From contig DXJF01000159.1 in assembly GCA_019057375.1 (NCBI GenBank), forward strand, positions 1-61,943: a stretch of 61,943 nucleotides of DNA, given 5' to 3'. Shown here one piece after another: positions 33,318-43,136 of this stretch; the first letter of the stretch is position 1; each line of letters begins with the position of its first letter. Made by a program: the position numbers and the translations under genes. This DNA is from Candidatus Heimdallarchaeota archaeon. GTDB lineage: Archaea; Asgardarchaeota; Heimdallarchaeia; Heimdallarchaeales; Heimdallarchaeaceae. Below the pieces are notes generated by a model. It worked only from the letters and a program-made list of their open reading frames with translations. It had not been told where the DNA came from and did not search any database.

Positions 33318-34412
33318 TTGAAAAACACAGATCATGAAGAATACGTAATTGAACAATTCATAATTGAGAGAGAGAAATTTGATGAGTTATCTAAGCTAAT
33401 CACTCAAGCTTTCCTAAGTGATGAAACTGCATTAACAGAAGGGGCAACTGTTGCATTTTCAGAAGAAACGTTTAACATAATGTATGGAGCTCCTTCTATT
33501 GATAAGGACCTTTTCATCAGAGCTATCCACAAACAAACAGGAGAAATAGTAGGATTCCTAGGTTCAATTCCTAGAAATCTTTCTATTATGGGTGAAGTTT
33601 ACAAATTAGCTGTACCTTCATGGTTATGTGTTCACTCTAAACATCAGAAAAAAGGTTTAGCAAAAGGTATGGGGAAGAAGTTATTTGAAATTGGTCTAGC
33701 CAAAGGTTATGATGGAGGATTTTCTCTTCATGAACCTGAGCAACATGGAATAGATGTTTCTACAGCTGTATCCAGAGAGAAGGATATTCCCTTACAAAGA
33801 GTAGTCACTCTAACTAAATTTGTAATCAAAGCATTTGATGTAGATAAAGTTGCTACTGTGGTTAAACTAAGATGGTATGAAAAGCTAGTATTCAGATTCT
33901 TTGAGAAGATAAAAACTATCAACTCTGACCAAATCAGAAAATGTCAGGATAAAGATATACCAGATATGTTTGAAATCATTCAAGAGCAAGTGAAACGAAA
34001 TCAGCTATCAATAGTTCCAGAGCTGGAGGATTTCAAATGGATGCTCAAGAATCCAAATGTTAATTGTGTTATTCATGAAGATAGCAAAGGTAAAATCAAA
34101 GGATTTATGCTAGCCTGGGAATTTTATCTTGCGGGTTTCGGAAACAAAATTCCTTTTGGATGGTTAGATATGATTCATATACATAGGTTGAACACGAAGG
34201 AAGCTAGTAATTTAGCAAATTATCTGAGTCAAACATCCAAAGAACATGGATGGATAGGACTACAAACTCCATATATTCCTTATTTTGATATGAAACCTTT
34301 GAAAAAAGCAAAATTCTTCTTCTTTGGTAAAAAAATCAACTTAGACCTCTTCAATATGAATAATATATCAATTCCTGAAAAAGTTGAATCTTTTTATTTT
34401 GATTGGAGATAA
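33318..34412 (+). CDS. Tandem-GNAT acyltransferase colinear with eukaryotic N-myristoyltransferase (NMT-like)
   Basis: IVGFLGSIPRNLSI, WLCVHSK, IRKCQDKDIP, KF-x10-LFN, EKV; TTG start with GGAG upstream. Confidence 0.7.
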   Translation: MKNTDHEEYVIEQFIIEREKFDELSKLITQAFLSDETALTEGATVAFSEETFNIMYGAPSIDKDLFIRAIHKQTGEIVGFLGSIPRNLSIMGEVYKLAVPSWLCVHSKHQKKGLAKGMGKKLFEIGLAKGYDGGFSLHEPEQHGIDVSTAVSREKDIPLQRVVTLTKFVIKAFDVDKVATVVKLRWYEKLVFRFFEKIKTINSDQIRKCQDKDIPDMFEIIQEQVKRNQLSIVPELEDFKWMLKNPNVNCVIHEDSKGKIKGFMLAWEFYLAGFGNKIPFGWLDMIHIHRLNTKEASNLANYLSQTSKEHGWIGLQTPYIPYFDMKPLKKAKFFFFGKKINLDLFNMNNISIPEKVESFYFDWR

Positions 34413-36672: not shown

Positions 36673-37041
36673 ATGGCTCGAAGAAGAAGACCAATGCGTA
36701 GACCAATGCGTAGACCATTAAAGGATCTAATGAGAGGACCAATCAGACGAGGGATGAATCGACGTCAGAGGAGAATATTTCGACGACAAAGAAGAATGAT
36801 TAGAAGAACAAGAAGGTTCATTTTCGGTTCTGTGATAATTCTCGCTCTTGCAAATAGCAGACATAATTACAAGTTTCATCAAGAGGATGTAGCTCGTATT
36901 GAAAGCTATTATGGAAGACCAGCTGAAGATTTAACTGATGTAGAACTTATTCAAGCAATGAGGAAATTAGGAATTAATCATCTAGACATTAATGACCATG
37001 AGAATGACAAAATTATTGATGATATTGGAGAAGAGTATTAA
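36673..37041 (+). CDS. Hypothetical protein with extremely Arg-rich N-terminus
   Basis: 23 Arg in the first 50 aa, then a hydrophobic stretch and an acidic helical domain. Confidence 0.7.
   Translation: MARRRRPMRRPMRRPLKDLMRGPIRRGMNRRQRRIFRRQRRMIRRTRRFIFGSVIILALANSRHNYKFHQEDVARIESYYGRPAEDLTDVELIQAMRKLGINHLDINDHENDKIIDDIGEEY
36688..36717 (+). repeat. In-frame 12-bp tandem repeat (AGACCAATGCGT x2.5, encoding RPMR)
   Basis: Direct reading of sequence. Confidence 0.9.
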
Positions 37042-37187: not shown

Positions 37188-39203
37188 TTAGAATGAGATT
37201 CTAATCCAATATGCAGGATGGTCTGATTGCTCTGTTAGGATATATCTTGCATCTAAAACAGTCGTTCCAGAACTAACAAAAATATGGTCAATTCTATCTG
37301 AACTATTGAATGAATTATCATCTAATCCAGAAGGCCATTTAAGATACCAGCTGTCATTGAGTACTGCTGTAGTTAAGCTATATTGTACAGAATCTTTTCT
37401 GAAATTAAAATCACCCATAAAAATAACATTGCTTAATCCATCTACTCTTGTTAGCATCTCTTCTTGTTGAAGAATCATTGTACTTGATGCACCAGAGGGA
37501 TGATTAACAAAAACATTGTAAACGGTTGAATCTAATGTTACTTCTGCTTGAGCTGAACCAATTTGTTCTTCATCACTGAACATAAAGAATGACATTTCAT
37601 TAGATATAGGGAATTTAGAAAGGATTGCGCATCCATACGTGTTAGTAACAGTATTTGGACCATAATATGAATACATATTTAGTTTTTCTGCGAAATATCT
37701 CACAACGTCCAGATTTCCTCCAGATATCCTTGTAGGATCACATTCCTGTAAACCTAGAATGTCGGGGTCAACTTGCCTTATCAGCTCAATTTGGCTATCA
37801 AAATTCCTATCTCCTGTAACATTTCTTCCTTGTTGAATATTGAATGTCATTATAACCAGATCTCCATCTGGTGTATAGTTTGGATAAGGTTTTGTCACAA
37901 GTGTACCTACTAATGTTCCTAGGAAAATTGTACTAAGCAGTACTATTACACTCATATTTCTTCTTTTATTTGTGTATAGTTTACCTAAATCAAACGAGCT
38001 TTTCTTAATCAATAGAATGGATAAAGTCAGTATTAAACCAGGTAAAAAGAAAGCTAACCAATACTTATCTCTAAATCCTGTACTAATCGGTTCAAGGTAA
38101 CCCCAATTATTGGGTAATATTTGAACAAAAATCATTACAATGATATAGAGACTACCAGCTAATGCGAAACTACCACCCATTTTTCTAGTGGAGGGTTTTA
38201 TCTTGATTATTTCTCTAGTTAGAAGCATAAAGTTAACATAGATTATTGGTGATAGAAGAATCATTATAGCTAGCGGTATGTGATAGTACCAAGCAGTTTG
38301 TGGAGCAACTATAGGATATAAAGCAGATTCGTCGGGAAAGCTCAGTTGATGAACAAGAACAGTTAGGAAAAGAGACATAGCAAATACACCATTCCATAAC
38401 CAAAGCATCCATGTTTTCAATTTGCTTAACAAATCTGGTTTAAGCATTTGTCCTATTACAAACAAAGATAAGACTCCAAGTATGCCTAGAGTTATTCCAA
38501 TATAATTTCCTTCTGTCCATCTAGAAATTACCGTAGGACTAGCAAAAGTAAACCAAATAATAATGAAAACGCTTACAAGTCCAGAAGTTAAAGCAAGGAT
38601 TTTACCAAAACCACTTCCTTTTGAAGACTCTTTGATTTCTTCTTGAGTTTCCTTCTGTCCTTCACTTTTGAATTTCATCCCAAATAGCATAATTCCTGCA
38701 ATTATACCGAAAATCCAACCAATCACTTGATACCAACTATACATCGATATGTCAAGAGAGGAATTTAAAGATCTAAGCAAAATGGATAATGCGACAGCAA
38801 TTGCAAGTGATAGTCCAAGAGTTGTACTCGTTTTCTTCTCTTCATTTTTCATCCTTGTTAAATAAATTGGAAAGAAAACTAAGAAACATCCAACTGCTAA
38901 ACCTGAAGTAACCAAAATTCCTTGTCTTTTTAGTAATGGATCTAGTAATCTAGATAAAATTATTAATTCCCCTAGTATAACTAATATCTTATCTGGCAGC
39001 CTTTTACGGAAGAATAAAAGCACAACAGGAGTAATAAGAAATACCAATCCTAAAATGTTCTCATCAGGTTCTAGGTTTAAGAGGGCAAAACCATAAATTG
39101 TTTCAACTAAATCAGAAAGCGCTTGAAAGAAGAATAAGAACAAGATTGCAAACATAATTAACTCGGAATAGAATTTCTTGATATTATCCCTAATACTTGT
39201 CAT
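37188..39203 (-). CDS. Polytopic membrane protein with C-terminal EEP domain, Cwh43/PGAP2IP-like
   Basis: About a dozen or more TM helices; TFNIQQG, GLQECD, GNLDV, LNMYSYYGP, TYGCAILSKFPI, GDFN, RIDHIF, SDH. Confidence 0.8.
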   Translation of the reverse strand: MTSIRDNIKKFYSELIMFAILFLFFFQALSDLVETIYGFALLNLEPDENILGLVFLITPVVLLFFRKRLPDKILVILGELIILSRLLDPLLKRQGILVTSGLAVGCFLVFFPIYLTRMKNEEKKTSTTLGLSLAIAVALSILLRSLNSSLDISMYSWYQVIGWIFGIIAGIMLFGMKFKSEGQKETQEEIKESSKGSGFGKILALTSGLVSVFIIIWFTFASPTVISRWTEGNYIGITLGILGVLSLFVIGQMLKPDLLSKLKTWMLWLWNGVFAMSLFLTVLVHQLSFPDESALYPIVAPQTAWYYHIPLAIMILLSPIIYVNFMLLTREIIKIKPSTRKMGGSFALAGSLYIIVMIFVQILPNNWGYLEPISTGFRDKYWLAFFLPGLILTLSILLIKKSSFDLGKLYTNKRRNMSVIVLLSTIFLGTLVGTLVTKPYPNYTPDGDLVIMTFNIQQGRNVTGDRNFDSQIELIRQVDPDILGLQECDPTRISGGNLDVVRYFAEKLNMYSYYGPNTVTNTYGCAILSKFPISNEMSFFMFSDEEQIGSAQAEVTLDSTVYNVFVNHPSGASSTMILQQEEMLTRVDGLSNVIFMGDFNFRKDSVQYSLTTAVLNDSWYLKWPSGLDDNSFNSSDRIDHIFVSSGTTVLDARYILTEQSDHPAYWIRISF

Positions 39204-39262: not shown

Positions 39263-40018
39263 CTAATTTTCTTTTAGTTTTGTTACTACTTTTGATAAAA
39301 TTTCTCCAGCACTAACCTCGAGCTTGATATCAGCTTTTTCATCCAAAGGTGTTGAGTCTATATTAATAATAATTAATTTTACACCATTCTTTTGTGCTTT
39401 TCTAGGCAATCCTGCAGCAGGAAAAACTGATAAACTTGATCCTACAACCAACATTAAATCACACTTCTGAGTGTGTTTCTTCGATATAGCCATTTCTTTC
39501 TCAGGCATAGGGTCATTAAAATTAATAACAGAAGAAATTATTCTACCATTACACTTTGGACATACCGGTTGGTGATCAAGTTGTTCTTCTGTTCTAGAAC
39601 CTCTTCCATGAATTTCTCGATCCCAACCAATCTCTTCCCGCTTATATCGAGTATCACATTCTATACATTTCATAAACATATAGTTCCCATGAAGTTCAGC
39701 TATCAATTCAAGCTTAATACCGGATTTAAGATGAAGATTATCCACATTTTGAGAAATTAAGAATTTAAGTATCCCCATGTCTTGCAAGGCAACTAGAGCA
39801 AGATGGCCAGTATTCGGTTTAACTTCATCAAAATGTTTTCCTCTTTTAGGTGGTAGTCCCTTTTCTTTTCTTGTCCAGATACCGTCTTTACCTCTGAAAT
39901 CAGCTAATCCAGATTCAGTACTTATACCAGCACCTGTAAAAGCTACTACATAGTTAGATTCATTGATCATCCGGACGATGTCATTAACATCTTTTTCCGT
40001 AAATGGGATTTTTTTCAC
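39263..40018 (-). CDS. Sir2 family NAD-dependent deacylase, class IV (SIRT6/7)-like
   Basis: GAGISTESG, FRG..GIWT, SQNVDNLH, ELHGN, CxxC/CxxC, GSSL. Confidence 0.9.
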   Translation of the reverse strand: MKKIPFTEKDVNDIVRMINESNYVVAFTGAGISTESGLADFRGKDGIWTRKEKGLPPKRGKHFDEVKPNTGHLALVALQDMGILKFLISQNVDNLHLKSGIKLELIAELHGNYMFMKCIECDTRYKREEIGWDREIHGRGSRTEEQLDHQPVCPKCNGRIISSVINFNDPMPEKEMAISKKHTQKCDLMLVVGSSLSVFPAAGLPRKAQKNGVKLIIINIDSTPLDEKADIKLEVSAGEILSKVVTKLKEN

Positions 40019-40101
40019 CTTGAATAGAAAAAAAGAAGAGAATTTTAACTTTACCTTTTAACAATGAATAAACTGTTTAGAAAGAACTCCCAGGATCTAA
40101 A

Positions 40102-40437: not shown

Positions 40438-40653
40438 ATGGATGATGACAAAGTTTACAAAATAATTGAATTGGTTGGATCCTCTCCAAATAATTGGGAA
40501 GAAGCAGTTCAAGCAGCTGTTGCACAAGCTTCAAAATCACTTAGAGACCTTCGAGTTGTTGAAGTAAAGAAATTAGATGCCAGAATTAATGATGGGATGA
40601 TTGTTGCATACAGAGCCAGGGTTAAGTTAAGTTTCAAGTATCAAAAAGAATGA
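40438..40653 (+). CDS. Dodecin (flavin-binding)
   Basis: VYKIIELVGSS..WEEAVQAA...LRDLR..EV...YRARVKLSF; AGGAGG Shine-Dalgarno at 40425-40430. Confidence 0.95.
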   Translation: MDDDKVYKIIELVGSSPNNWEEAVQAAVAQASKSLRDLRVVEVKKLDARINDGMIVAYRARVKLSFKYQKE

Positions 40654-40679
40654 GTGGGGAAATTGTAATTAAAAATACG

Positions 40680-41582
40680 TTATTTACTAAATTTCTTTCT
40701 AGCTTTTCTTACTAATTCATCTGGTTTTTCACTGTAAGGTATGTAAAACTCTCCTATTGATGTTTGGTTTATACTTTTTTCAATTATATCACTTAGTGTT
40801 TGATTAACTTCAAAACCAAGGAAATGCCTGAAAGAACCTTTTGCTGCAACAGCTGTTGTACCATTACCTATAAATGGATCTAGAACCAAGTCACCAGGTT
40901 TGCTACCAAAATCTATACATCTTAAAACAACCTCTAGAGGAAGTTTAGTTGCATTCTTCTTTGTTCCTCTTTCATATTCTCTTTTGAAAGTCCATACATC
41001 TTCAGGATAGTGTTCAACCTTGTTGAAGAAATAATTCTTTTCGTTTTTAACTGCAAATAGAACATGATAGTGACTAGTGACAAATTTTCTTCTAGTGAAA
41101 ACACCAAATTGATATTTCCAGATAATATGGTTGATCAATGTTAGGTTGTTATCTCTTAATGCGTTCAAGATATCTACAAGATTTGTCCAACCGCTAAAGA
41201 TCCAAACACCAGCATCATCTTTCATAAGACGAGGAAGTTCACTTATCCATTTTTCTGTGAAATCCATATAATTCTCAATACAAATATCTTGGTATCCTTC
41301 TGCAACATAATTACTGTCTCGATTATAGAGCGGTTCCATGTCACTGAAATTTAAACCAAAAGGAGGATCTGCTACAATCACGTCAACACATTCTGTTGGA
41401 AGATCCTTCATTCCTTTAATACAATCTTTTAAATGAATCTTATCAACTTCAAAGGTAAATAATCTATCATTAAACAAACTCAATGCTTCAGCTTCTGTCC
41501 AATCAAATGCTGGCTTGAATTCAGCAGCAGCTTTATGAGGTATATATGATCTTTTGCTACCTTTGGTTTGCGAAGTTTTCAT
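40680..41582 (-). CDS. Orphan beta-class N6-adenine/N4-cytosine DNA methyltransferase
   Basis: Catalytic DPPF precedes SAM-binding DPFIGNGTT; IIWKY, ATKLP. Confidence 0.9.
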   Translation of the reverse strand: MKTSQTKGSKRSYIPHKAAAEFKPAFDWTEAEALSLFNDRLFTFEVDKIHLKDCIKGMKDLPTECVDVIVADPPFGLNFSDMEPLYNRDSNYVAEGYQDICIENYMDFTEKWISELPRLMKDDAGVWIFSGWTNLVDILNALRDNNLTLINHIIWKYQFGVFTRRKFVTSHYHVLFAVKNEKNYFFNKVEHYPEDVWTFKREYERGTKKNATKLPLEVVLRCIDFGSKPGDLVLDPFIGNGTTAVAAKGSFRHFLGFEVNQTLSDIIEKSINQTSIGEFYIPYSEKPDELVRKARKKFSK

Positions 41583-41610
41583 AAGCTCATCACTAACTGT
41601 TTTTCATAAC

Positions 41611-42444
41611 TTAAAACTCTTTTTTTTCAATCAAAGTATTATACATCTCAGGTCTTCTATCATTGAAGATGTGATTGTTGTCACTTAACCACTTGTTTCT
41701 TGCTTTTGTGATATCTATTTCAACAATATGCATTTCTTCCTTATCAGTACTAGCTTGTACAAGCCTTTTCGCATCTGGAGTCGTCACTTGACTATGACCT
41801 TTAAAATGAAGGCTGAATTCTCCATTTGTTTCGATACCAATTCGATTAGAGGTAATAGTAAATATCTGGTTTTCAATGGATCTTGTAATCATTGCAGTTT
41901 GACAAAAGGAAAGAACGAGATTTGTTGAATGAGCTAATATATCCATACCTTGGAGTGCGAGGCTTCTGGTGGCCTCTGGAAAAATCCAGTCCCAACATAC
42001 TAATATCCCTAGATTCATCCCCCTGATATTATATACTTTGAAAGGTCCATCCCCAGGTTCAAAGAACAGTTTTTCCCTATCAAATAAATGTACCTTCCGG
42101 TATTTAGCTACAAAACCTTCAGGACCTACTAATACTGAAGAATTAAAGTATTTACTTCCACTTTTTTCACAGACTCCACAGACTATATAGCCATTTTTTT
42201 GTTTAGCTAATTCACTTAATTTCTCAACAAAATATCCCGAAGGAATTTCTTCAGAAACTTTAGCTAGTTCTTCCTTCTCCACAAAAACATATCCAGAATT
42301 CGCTAATTCTGGAATAACTAATAAATCAAAAGATTTTGTTCCTTCAACAAGTTTGGAAATTGTATCAATATTCTTCTCAACATCTTTCAAAATTGGCTGA
42401 AACTGTAGAAAACCTACTTTCATCATTTTTCGTTTGATATTCAT
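41611..42444 (-). CDS. Carbon-nitrogen hydrolase (nitrilase superfamily)
   Basis: E-K-C triad: PELA, YRKVHLF, VCWD. Confidence 0.9.
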   Translation of the reverse strand: MNIKRKMMKVGFLQFQPILKDVEKNIDTISKLVEGTKSFDLLVIPELANSGYVFVEKEELAKVSEEIPSGYFVEKLSELAKQKNGYIVCGVCEKSGSKYFNSSVLVGPEGFVAKYRKVHLFDREKLFFEPGDGPFKVYNIRGMNLGILVCWDWIFPEATRSLALQGMDILAHSTNLVLSFCQTAMITRSIENQIFTITSNRIGIETNGEFSLHFKGHSQVTTPDAKRLVQASTDKEEMHIVEIDITKARNKWLSDNNHIFNDRRPEMYNTLIEKKEF

Positions 42445-43136
42445 CTATTTAAATTTGTGGCAGAGAGATTTACTGATTTCTTGAAGGAATCGATCAAAGA
42501 GATAAGTTCAGTAATTTCATAAATATTATAATCTGGTTTTAATTTCATCACTTTTTCAGGAGTAGAAGCTCCATAATATGCTAAAACTGAATTAACTCTC
42601 GCTTGTTTTGCACTTCGTATATCAAACTCTGTATCACCTATCATGAATGTGCGACTATTTGAGATACTGAAATCATTCATGATTTGAATAATAGCTTTTG
42701 ACTTTGTTTTATCAAGAGTACCTATTGGTTTATCGAATAAATGAGAAATTTTAAAGTGTTGTAACCACTTTTCCATCCTTTCTTGAGATTTTCTAGACAC
42801 TAATCCAATATAGTTTGTTTTCTTAAGTTCTTCAAGTGTTTCTCTTACACCAGAATAAAGACTTCGTAAATATGAATATTTATCTGTAATGTTTACATAA
42901 TATTGAAGAGCTAAATCTAATAATTCAGGATCATCATTTTCTAAGAATTCAATGAAATCCTGTTTCTGATCGGTATTTCCCACCCTTTCTTTGAAAACTT
43001 TCTCAGATAATTTCTTACCTGAGAAATGCTCTACAGTTTCTTGCATCTGCATAGCATATGCTTCTTTGGAATCAGCTAACACTCCATCAAAATCAAAAAT
43101 GATTAAACAACATTTTTCGCTATTTCTCAAACCCAT
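42441..43136 (-). CDS. HAD-superfamily hydrolase (phosphoglycolate phosphatase-like)
   Basis: IFDFDGVLADS, VSRK, MIGDTEFD. Confidence 0.9.
   Translation of the reverse strand: MGLRNSEKCCLIIFDFDGVLADSKEAYAMQMQETVEHFSGKKLSEKVFKERVGNTDQKQDFIEFLENDDPELLDLALQYYVNITDKYSYLRSLYSGVRETLEELKKTNYIGLVSRKSQERMEKWLQHFKISHLFDKPIGTLDKTKSKAIIQIMNDFSISNSRTFMIGDTEFDIRSAKQARVNSVLAYYGASTPEKVMKLKPDYNIYEITELISLIDSFKKSVNLSATNLNR

Follow-up and report, generated by a model that had tools for sequence, protein, structure and literature searches.

A SIRT6-like short-form sirtuin of a Heimdallarchaeota genome and its relatives in Asgard archaea, bacteria and eukaryotes

The class IV sirtuins SIRT6/7 serve chromatin and genome stability in eukaryotes, and the origin of this class bears on the rise of eukaryotic chromatin regulation. 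The class is understood here as the SIRT6/SIRT7 lineage (Frye 2000). A gene in the window, the 61,943-nucleotide stretch of Candidatus Heimdallarchaeota DNA analysed here, was assigned to class IV in a first-pass annotation on account of its likeness to human SIRT6. This raises the questions of whether the likeness is real, what the archaeal enzyme is likely to do and what it says about the source of the eukaryotic enzymes. The gene and the features of its product are as follows:

39263..40018, minus strand: complete sirtuin gene with a GTG start, 251 codons plus stop (open reading frame list and translation)
40041..40048, minus strand: A/T-rich TTAAAATT preceding the GTG by 23-30 nt (direct reading)
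39920..39934, minus strand: GAGIS, Rossmann NAD-binding motif, residues 29-33, aligned to SIRT6 G52-S56
39752..39919, minus strand: short linker, residues 34-89, including DFRG (40-43) and W48, gapless against SIRT6
39740..39751, minus strand: QNVD of the nicotinamide/ribose pocket, residues 90-93, aligned to SIRT6 Q113-D116
39683..39697, minus strand: ELHGN, residues 108-112, with the catalytic His110, aligned to SIRT6 H133
39551..39667, minus strand: zinc module C118-x2-C121 ... C153-x2-C156, 32 residues between the Cys pairs

The translated product belongs to the SIR2 superfamily (PF02146; Bitscore: 113.4; cut-off: 24). The GTG start is credible, since orthologs of 250-252 amino acids cover 100% of the protein and begin at the same aligned position, while the TTAAAATT sequence upstream is possibly an archaeal TATA-like box. 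In an alignment of 15 diverse short-form sirtuins all catalytic, NAD-binding and zinc residues are invariant, namely G29, G31 and S33 of the Rossmann motif, Q90, N91 and D93 of the nicotinamide/ribose pocket, E108, H110, G111 and N112 around the catalytic histidine, and the four cysteines C118, C121, C153 and C156. A further Pfam family, TPP_enzyme_M, was set aside as its match falls below the curated cut-off (27.5 versus 30.4 bits); it presumably reflects remote similarity, at the level of the fold, in the C-terminal Rossmann half of the sirtuin.

Comparison against all PDB chains with HMMER identified human SIRT6 as the closest relative of known structure (Bitscore: 176; e-value: 1e-50), followed by Sir2-Af2 (138 bits), Sir2Tm (126 bits), Sir2-Af1 (123 bits) and SIRT7 (100 bits), the last of which thus ranks under Sir2-Af2. 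Residues 8-245 align with SIRT6 31-266 in a single stretch interrupted by one 2-residue gap, and residues 8-145 pair with SIRT6 31-168 with no gap at all. The first-pass annotation had set a 35-residue segment, FRG to HLAL, gaplessly against human SIRT6. HMMER returns the same pairing (residues 41-75 against SIRT6 64-98), with 16/35 positions identical, the SIRT6 letters quoted there are those of the PDB chain as printed, the LKFLISQNVDNLH block aligns as stated there, and AELHGN is common to both proteins. The segment LKFLISQNVDNLHLKSG is identical to the LRFLVSQNVDGLHVRSG of SIRT6 at 12 of 17 positions. A fish SIRT6 (P0139) shares 35% amino acid identity over 244 columns (BLASTP; e-value: 4e-59) and, when used as query against this genome, retrieves the present gene (179 bits) ahead of its two paralogs (70 and 53 bits). 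The resemblance to SIRT6 is therefore real and well above chance level.

Overall identity could nonetheless suggest an ordinary prokaryotic CobB-type sirtuin of class U or III with a superficial likeness to SIRT6, as the protein shares on average 38.6% identity with the nearest canonical long forms, about as much as with the eukaryotic SIRT6-like set (36.3%), and the best NCBIfam model is of the CobB type. However, the CobB equivalog model (NF040867) reaches 207.9 of the 320 bits set as its cut-off, and all seven NCBIfam models of the CobB/PRK00481 type remain under their curated cut-offs and match in two stretches. The protein thus falls short of every CobB/deacylase cut-off and does not count as equivalog of a characterised enzyme from prokaryotes. 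Matches in a protein atlas, all of them to bacterial SIR2 clusters, contributed nothing further.

The class IV assignment had also invoked a short segment devoid of the helical module found in typical archaeal and bacterial sirtuins. The Pfam SIR2 match is split in two, with profile positions 27-56 skipped, and residues 34-89 form a linker, gapless against SIRT6, in place of the cofactor loop and helical module of other sirtuins. In the tree alignment the distance from S33 to Q90 is 57 residues, versus 73-93 in canonical sirtuins; it is 56-58 residues in the Asgard and bacterial short forms and mostly 56-62 in the eukaryotic SIRT6-like rows, with one row at 68. Measured from GAGIS to QN(V/I)D, the distance is bimodal. 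The query, SIRT6, the Asgard orthologs and some bacterial proteins fall at 60-62 residues, and canonical sirtuins, including the two others encoded in this genome, at 77-87, which amounts to a shortening of the stretch by some 17 residues. The model computed with AlphaFold2 from an alignment of 15 sequences (mean pLDDT: 92.2) places only one short helix, residues 47-52, within residues 34-69. Alignment and model thus agree that the protein lacks a helix bundle separating the Rossmann from the zinc domain, as does human SIRT6 (3K35, 3PKI, 3ZG6 and 8G57). In a Foldseek comparison of the model with the PDB, SIRT6 chains take the first rank (TM: 0.85; rmsd: 2.7 Å; 242 columns); the Sir2-Af2 and Sir2Tm structures follow at TM 0.74-0.76 and rmsd 4.6-5.4 Å, and with Sir2-Af1 included the range is TM 0.68-0.76 and rmsd 4.6-6.9 Å. 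The lack of the module had also been read as the class IV hallmark that opens a pocket for long acyl chains. This part of the claim does not hold, as Sir2-Af2 possesses the module and was crystallised with a myristoylated peptide (4twj, entry title). The acyl preference of the enzyme cannot be read from its sequence.

The assembly (3.47 Mb, 89% complete) encodes three sirtuins. One paralog has Sir2-Af1, SIRT5 and CobB as its best PDB relatives and is class III-like, while the best PDB relatives of the other, Sir2-Af2 and Sir2Tm, mark it as class U-like. Sirtuins of class U (Sir2-Af2, Sir2Tm) and class III (Sir2-Af1, CobB, SIRT5) share the fold and chemistry of the query and are of similar size, but carry a helical-module segment that is longer by about 17 residues, give two-piece or lower-scoring matches, and are placed outside the clade described below.

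A phylogeny was computed with IQ-TREE (LG+C20+F+G4, PMSF) from 94 rows and 244 columns and rooted on class III-like sequences. The tree covers class U-like and class III-like sequences along with the short forms, and excludes SIRT7, class I and class II. Among the 150 best cluster representatives the eukaryotic proteins are SIRT6-like only, and P0164 and P0147 each score higher to SIRT6 than to SIRT7. Every short form, comprising 17 Asgard, 13 named bacterial, 11 metagenomic and 24 eukaryotic sequences, falls in a clade of 68 rows with support of 100/100. Nearly all canonical long forms lie outside it, among them the class U-like and class III-like paralogs of this genome. A sirtuin phylogeny had been proposed as the check on the class IV assignment, with grouping among class U/III sirtuins named as the contrary outcome. 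No such grouping occurred, and the protein clusters with eukaryotic SIRT6-like proteins at 100/100 relative to class U-like and class III-like sequences. The shared deletion of some 17 residues, the first rank of SIRT6 both by sequence and by fold, and the placement of the paralogs elsewhere join the sub-threshold CobB models in arguing against an ordinary class U or III identity, which was not upheld by tree and matches and which we regard as most improbable.

The remaining three rows of the 68-row clade are long-form metagenome proteins (P0132, P0190 and P0127), positioned mostly near its base. Their linkers measure 80-93 residues, and they may be close to the state preceding the deletion of about 17 residues; P0127 sits on a long branch (1.28). 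Three metagenomic short forms, P0124 (408 aa), P0129 (537 aa) and P0140 (481 aa), carry N-terminal extensions of approximately 160-290 residues.

Within the short-form clade, the query belongs to a mostly Asgard group of 16 rows (98/97), and the eukaryotic rows, which include fish SIRT6 and proteins of a lycophyte, Willaertia, Pelomyxa and a chytrid, form a single clade (100/100). The backbone connecting such groups is weak (59/71, 86/89, 44/82, 38/82 and 77/82). The Asgard short forms do not constitute one clade, bacterial sequences being nested among them, and no Asgard group is resolved as sister to the eukaryotic SIRT6-like proteins, with bacterial sequences interleaved. A topology uniting Asgard archaea and eukaryotes to the exclusion of the named bacteria is not rejected by the AU test (delta lnL: 6.75; p: 0.37), and the eukaryotic proteins share on average 36% identity with the Asgard and 38-40% with the bacterial short forms. 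As the order in which the short forms of Asgard archaea, bacteria and eukaryotes diverge is weakly supported, these data are compatible with an origin of SIRT6/7 in Asgard archaea without demonstrating it.

The nearest homologs are found in named Heimdallarchaeota, at 94% identity, and others occur in Thor-, Loki-/Promethe-, Hod-, Jord-, Frey- and Borrarchaeota. Of 201 genomes sampled from the phylum, 62 (approximately 30%) carry an ortholog (at least 235 bits and at least 47% identity), and a clean gap separates these orthologs from the paralogs, which reach at most 144 bits. In one genome of the same class, the ortholog (G199:C181:6065-6793) contains an in-frame TAG, which may stem from a sequencing error, mark a pseudogene or be a stop codon that is recoded.

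A scan of species-representative genomes extended the distribution to bacteria of the Acidobacteriota, Actinomycetota, Chloroflexota and deltaproteobacteria. Short forms with 48-51% full-length identity to the query were identified in Pyrinomonadaceae, Blastocatellia, an Actinomycetota bacterium and Rubrobacter, and further ones, at 44-49%, in Dehalococcoidia, Chloroflexia, Syntrophaceae and deltaproteobacteria; many alphaproteobacterial matches, at 36-41%, are canonical long forms. The bacterial short forms share the short linker and the 100/100 clade with the query at 44-51% identity, and are uncharacterised. Most of them differ from the query in a much shorter zinc module, the Cys-pair span being 13 residues as compared to 32 in the Asgard forms and 20-24 in most canonical sirtuins; the 32-residue span is also found in an Acidobacteriota/Actinomycetota group. 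Class IV was originally defined as eukaryotic, as the first-pass annotation pointed out, whereas the present protein is archaeal and named bacteria carry the short form as well. The short form thus extends beyond eukaryotes and Asgard archaea, and that it is equally common in several bacterial phyla is a point for caution.

The nested bacterial sequences imply some interdomain transfer in the history of the family, and together with the lack of a single Asgard clade they could be taken to mean that the gene is a recent acquisition or a contaminant rather than a resident of this genome. The GC content near the gene equals that of the whole window (0.33), and a block of neighboring genes is shared with related Heimdallarchaeota contigs. 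This block, which encodes a dodecin, an orphan N6/N4 DNA methylase, a CN-hydrolase and a HAD hydrolase (71, 300, 277 and 231 aa, respectively), occupies one flank of the sirtuin gene (40438-43136) and is conserved in three such contigs (L097-L099). Ortholog identity, moreover, decreases stepwise with relatedness: members of the genus span 94% to 63%, other genomes of the phylum 47-59%. On the grounds of composition and graded orthology, contamination or recent transfer was rejected, and we consider it hardly credible.

Whether Asgard examples of class IV had been reported before was left open in the first-pass annotation. They had: Grau-Bové et al. described, in 2022, a sirtuin clade of Heimdall- and Lokiarchaeota as well-supported sister to SIRT7 (bioRxiv 10.1101/2021.11.30.470311). 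That clade comprises the same lineages and carries the same claim of class IV affinity as made here. The two analyses differ in that SIRT7 is the sister group there, whereas the eukaryotic clade of the present tree is made up of SIRT6-like proteins and has no resolved Asgard sister. Furthermore, a 2026 preprint reports that sirtuins of Lokiarchaeota deacetylate histone-tail peptides in an NAD+-dependent manner, that Loki and Hod sirtuins rescue a yeast sir2 deletion, that LoSIR2a-c of Ca. Lokiarchaeum ossiferum replace yeast Sir2 once fused to a Sir2 targeting domain, and sets LoSIR2b against the SIRT6-nucleosome structure (bioRxiv 10.64898/2026.07.02.735847). Ca. Lokiarchaeum ossiferum has three sirtuin paralogs, as does the present genome. 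In LoSIR2b, QNID (94-97) and ELHG (112-115) are spaced by 18 residues, as are the corresponding motifs of the query, whereas LoSIR2a (N106/H123, spacing 17) is not a short form; QNID at position 94 occurs in none of the 120 homologs listed. The SIRT6-like short-form sirtuin is thus genuine, was rightly recognised and is already known in Asgard archaea, and the gene adds one intact Heimdallarchaeota member to a clade that has been described.

The archaeal protein and SIRT6 have in common the GAGIS, DFRG, QNVD and ELHGN motifs, the catalytic histidine and a zinc module of equal overall length, but share only about 35% identity and diverge in several respects. SIRT6 possesses a splayed CxxC...Cx10C zinc finger, whereas that of the archaeal protein is the canonical CxxC...CxxC (118/121 and 153/156). 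The third cysteine of SIRT6, C166, pairs with T143 rather than a cysteine, and the ten-residue loop ahead of C177 is replaced, the query having CPKC (153-156). SIRT6 K170, R172, R175 and R178 anchor the enzyme to the nucleosome acidic patch (PMC10942634), while the query has H149, P151, P154 and N157 at the aligned positions. SIRT6 residues 1-30 and 267-355 have no counterpart, the query consisting of the core only (251 versus 355 aa). Neither the Cx10C finger with its basic loop nor the terminal extensions, by which a SIRT6 ortholog may be recognised, is therefore present, and the features by which SIRT6 anchors to the nucleosome were added in eukaryotes. As such, the first-pass description as a SIRT6-like class IV sirtuin stands as regards sequence, predicted fold and tree position, and does not extend to the specialities of SIRT6 itself.

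Sequence, predicted fold and family placement together make it very likely that the product is an active NAD+-dependent protein lysine deacylase of the short SIRT6-like (class IV-like) form, working as a stand-alone enzyme. We infer its activity, acyl preference and substrates, and, by homology to solved sirtuins, its mechanism. NAD+ would bind in the Rossmann cleft through GAGIS (29-33), DFRG (40-43), QNVD (90-93) and N219, and an acyl-lysine would enter the cleft between the Rossmann domain and the zinc module (C118, C121, C153 and C156). With His110 acting as the general base, the reaction would release nicotinamide and O-acyl-ADP-ribose.

Lysine deacylase activity is probable by this analogy. 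Eukaryotic class IV enzymes are, however, weak deacetylases on free peptides (PMC10652111; PMC10942634), and deacetylation is for that reason perhaps not the main activity of the archaeal enzyme either. Like SIRT6/7, it might act chiefly in long-chain deacylation or mono-ADP-ribosyltransfer and only weakly in peptide deacetylation. The SIRT6-like architecture is consistent with such a role, as are a zymograph survey in which class IV enzymes displayed no significant peptide deacylase activity (PMC10652111) and the name given to one homolog in the JGI database, 'mono-ADP-ribosyltransferase sirtuin 6'. ELHGN, which Simonet et al. (2020) tie to the ADP-ribosyltransferase activity of class IV, is furthermore conserved, in 16/17 Asgard rows and 17/17 eukaryotic rows where the motif was found. 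The motif also occurs in 11 of 24 canonical long-form rows, however, and is therefore not diagnostic, while long-chain deacylation is also seen in forms with the helical module (4twj). A main activity other than deacetylation thus appears possible, though on the doubtful side.

The substrates of the predicted deacylase are likely non-histone proteins, for example Alba or metabolic enzymes. No Pfam histone fold (PF00808) was found in the 89%-complete assembly, where the best match reaches 15 of the 21.4 bits required by the cut-off, and the genome contains two Alba genes (L106 and L107). This agrees with a preprint which describes KowaHeim1, a member of the Heimdallarchaeia, as devoid of nucleosomal histones. 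As no canonical histone was found, histone deacetylation is not to be assumed in this genome, and nothing in the sequence supports either histone targeting or a particular acyl preference.

The flank opposite the conserved block encodes a PGAP2IP/Cwh43-like membrane protein, a GH20 hexosaminidase, a DinB-like protein and an NMT/GNAT-like protein, of which two are detailed here:

37188-39203, minus strand: 671-aa polytopic membrane protein with a C-terminal Exo_endo_phos/PGAP2IP (Cwh43-like) domain
33318-34409, plus strand: 364-aa open reading frame for an NMT-like GNAT (Pfam NMT: 37.4 bits; Acetyltransf_9: 37.3 bits)

The membrane protein gene starts 59 nt past the stop codon of the sirtuin gene on the same strand. 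This proximity, the PGAP2IP domain and the NMT match could point to a local fatty-acylation system in which the sirtuin is the eraser, acting with the NMT-like GNAT and the Cwh43/PGAP2IP-like protein. The NMT match is nevertheless equalled by a generic GNAT match (Acetyltransf_9; 37 bits each), and beside the 94%-identical sirtuins of two relatives (L097 and L098), where the block is kept, a B12-binding radical-SAM gene takes the place of the NMT-like gene. Adjacency of sirtuin and EEP genes is lost in a relative at 70% identity, in which the block is partly kept and the phosphoesterase is gone, as well as in other Asgard loci, and the block is absent from the Frey and other Heimdall loci. No conserved operon or partner gene hinting at a substrate was found in four Asgard loci. 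An eraser role in such a local fatty-acylation system is accordingly very unlikely. The NMT-like reading frame overlaps the start of the DinB-like one by 10 nt.

The most far-reaching scenario joins descent and function. The Asgard ancestor would already have had the short form, which would have descended vertically to eukaryotes, founding SIRT6/7, and which in this Heimdall lineage would act on Alba-type chromatin proteins or fatty-acylated lysines, possibly with the NMT-like GNAT. If true, the sirtuin would represent a pre-eukaryotic eraser of chromatin or lipidation marks; we consider this combination improbable.

Between the membrane protein gene and the GNAT-like gene, a 122-aa open reading frame on the plus strand (36673-37041) encodes a product whose N-terminal half is extremely rich in arginine (RRRR and RRQRR runs) and leads into a hydrophobic stretch. 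Pfam gives no match for it, and open reading frames of 103-118 aa are called at the same place in the relatives L097 and L098.
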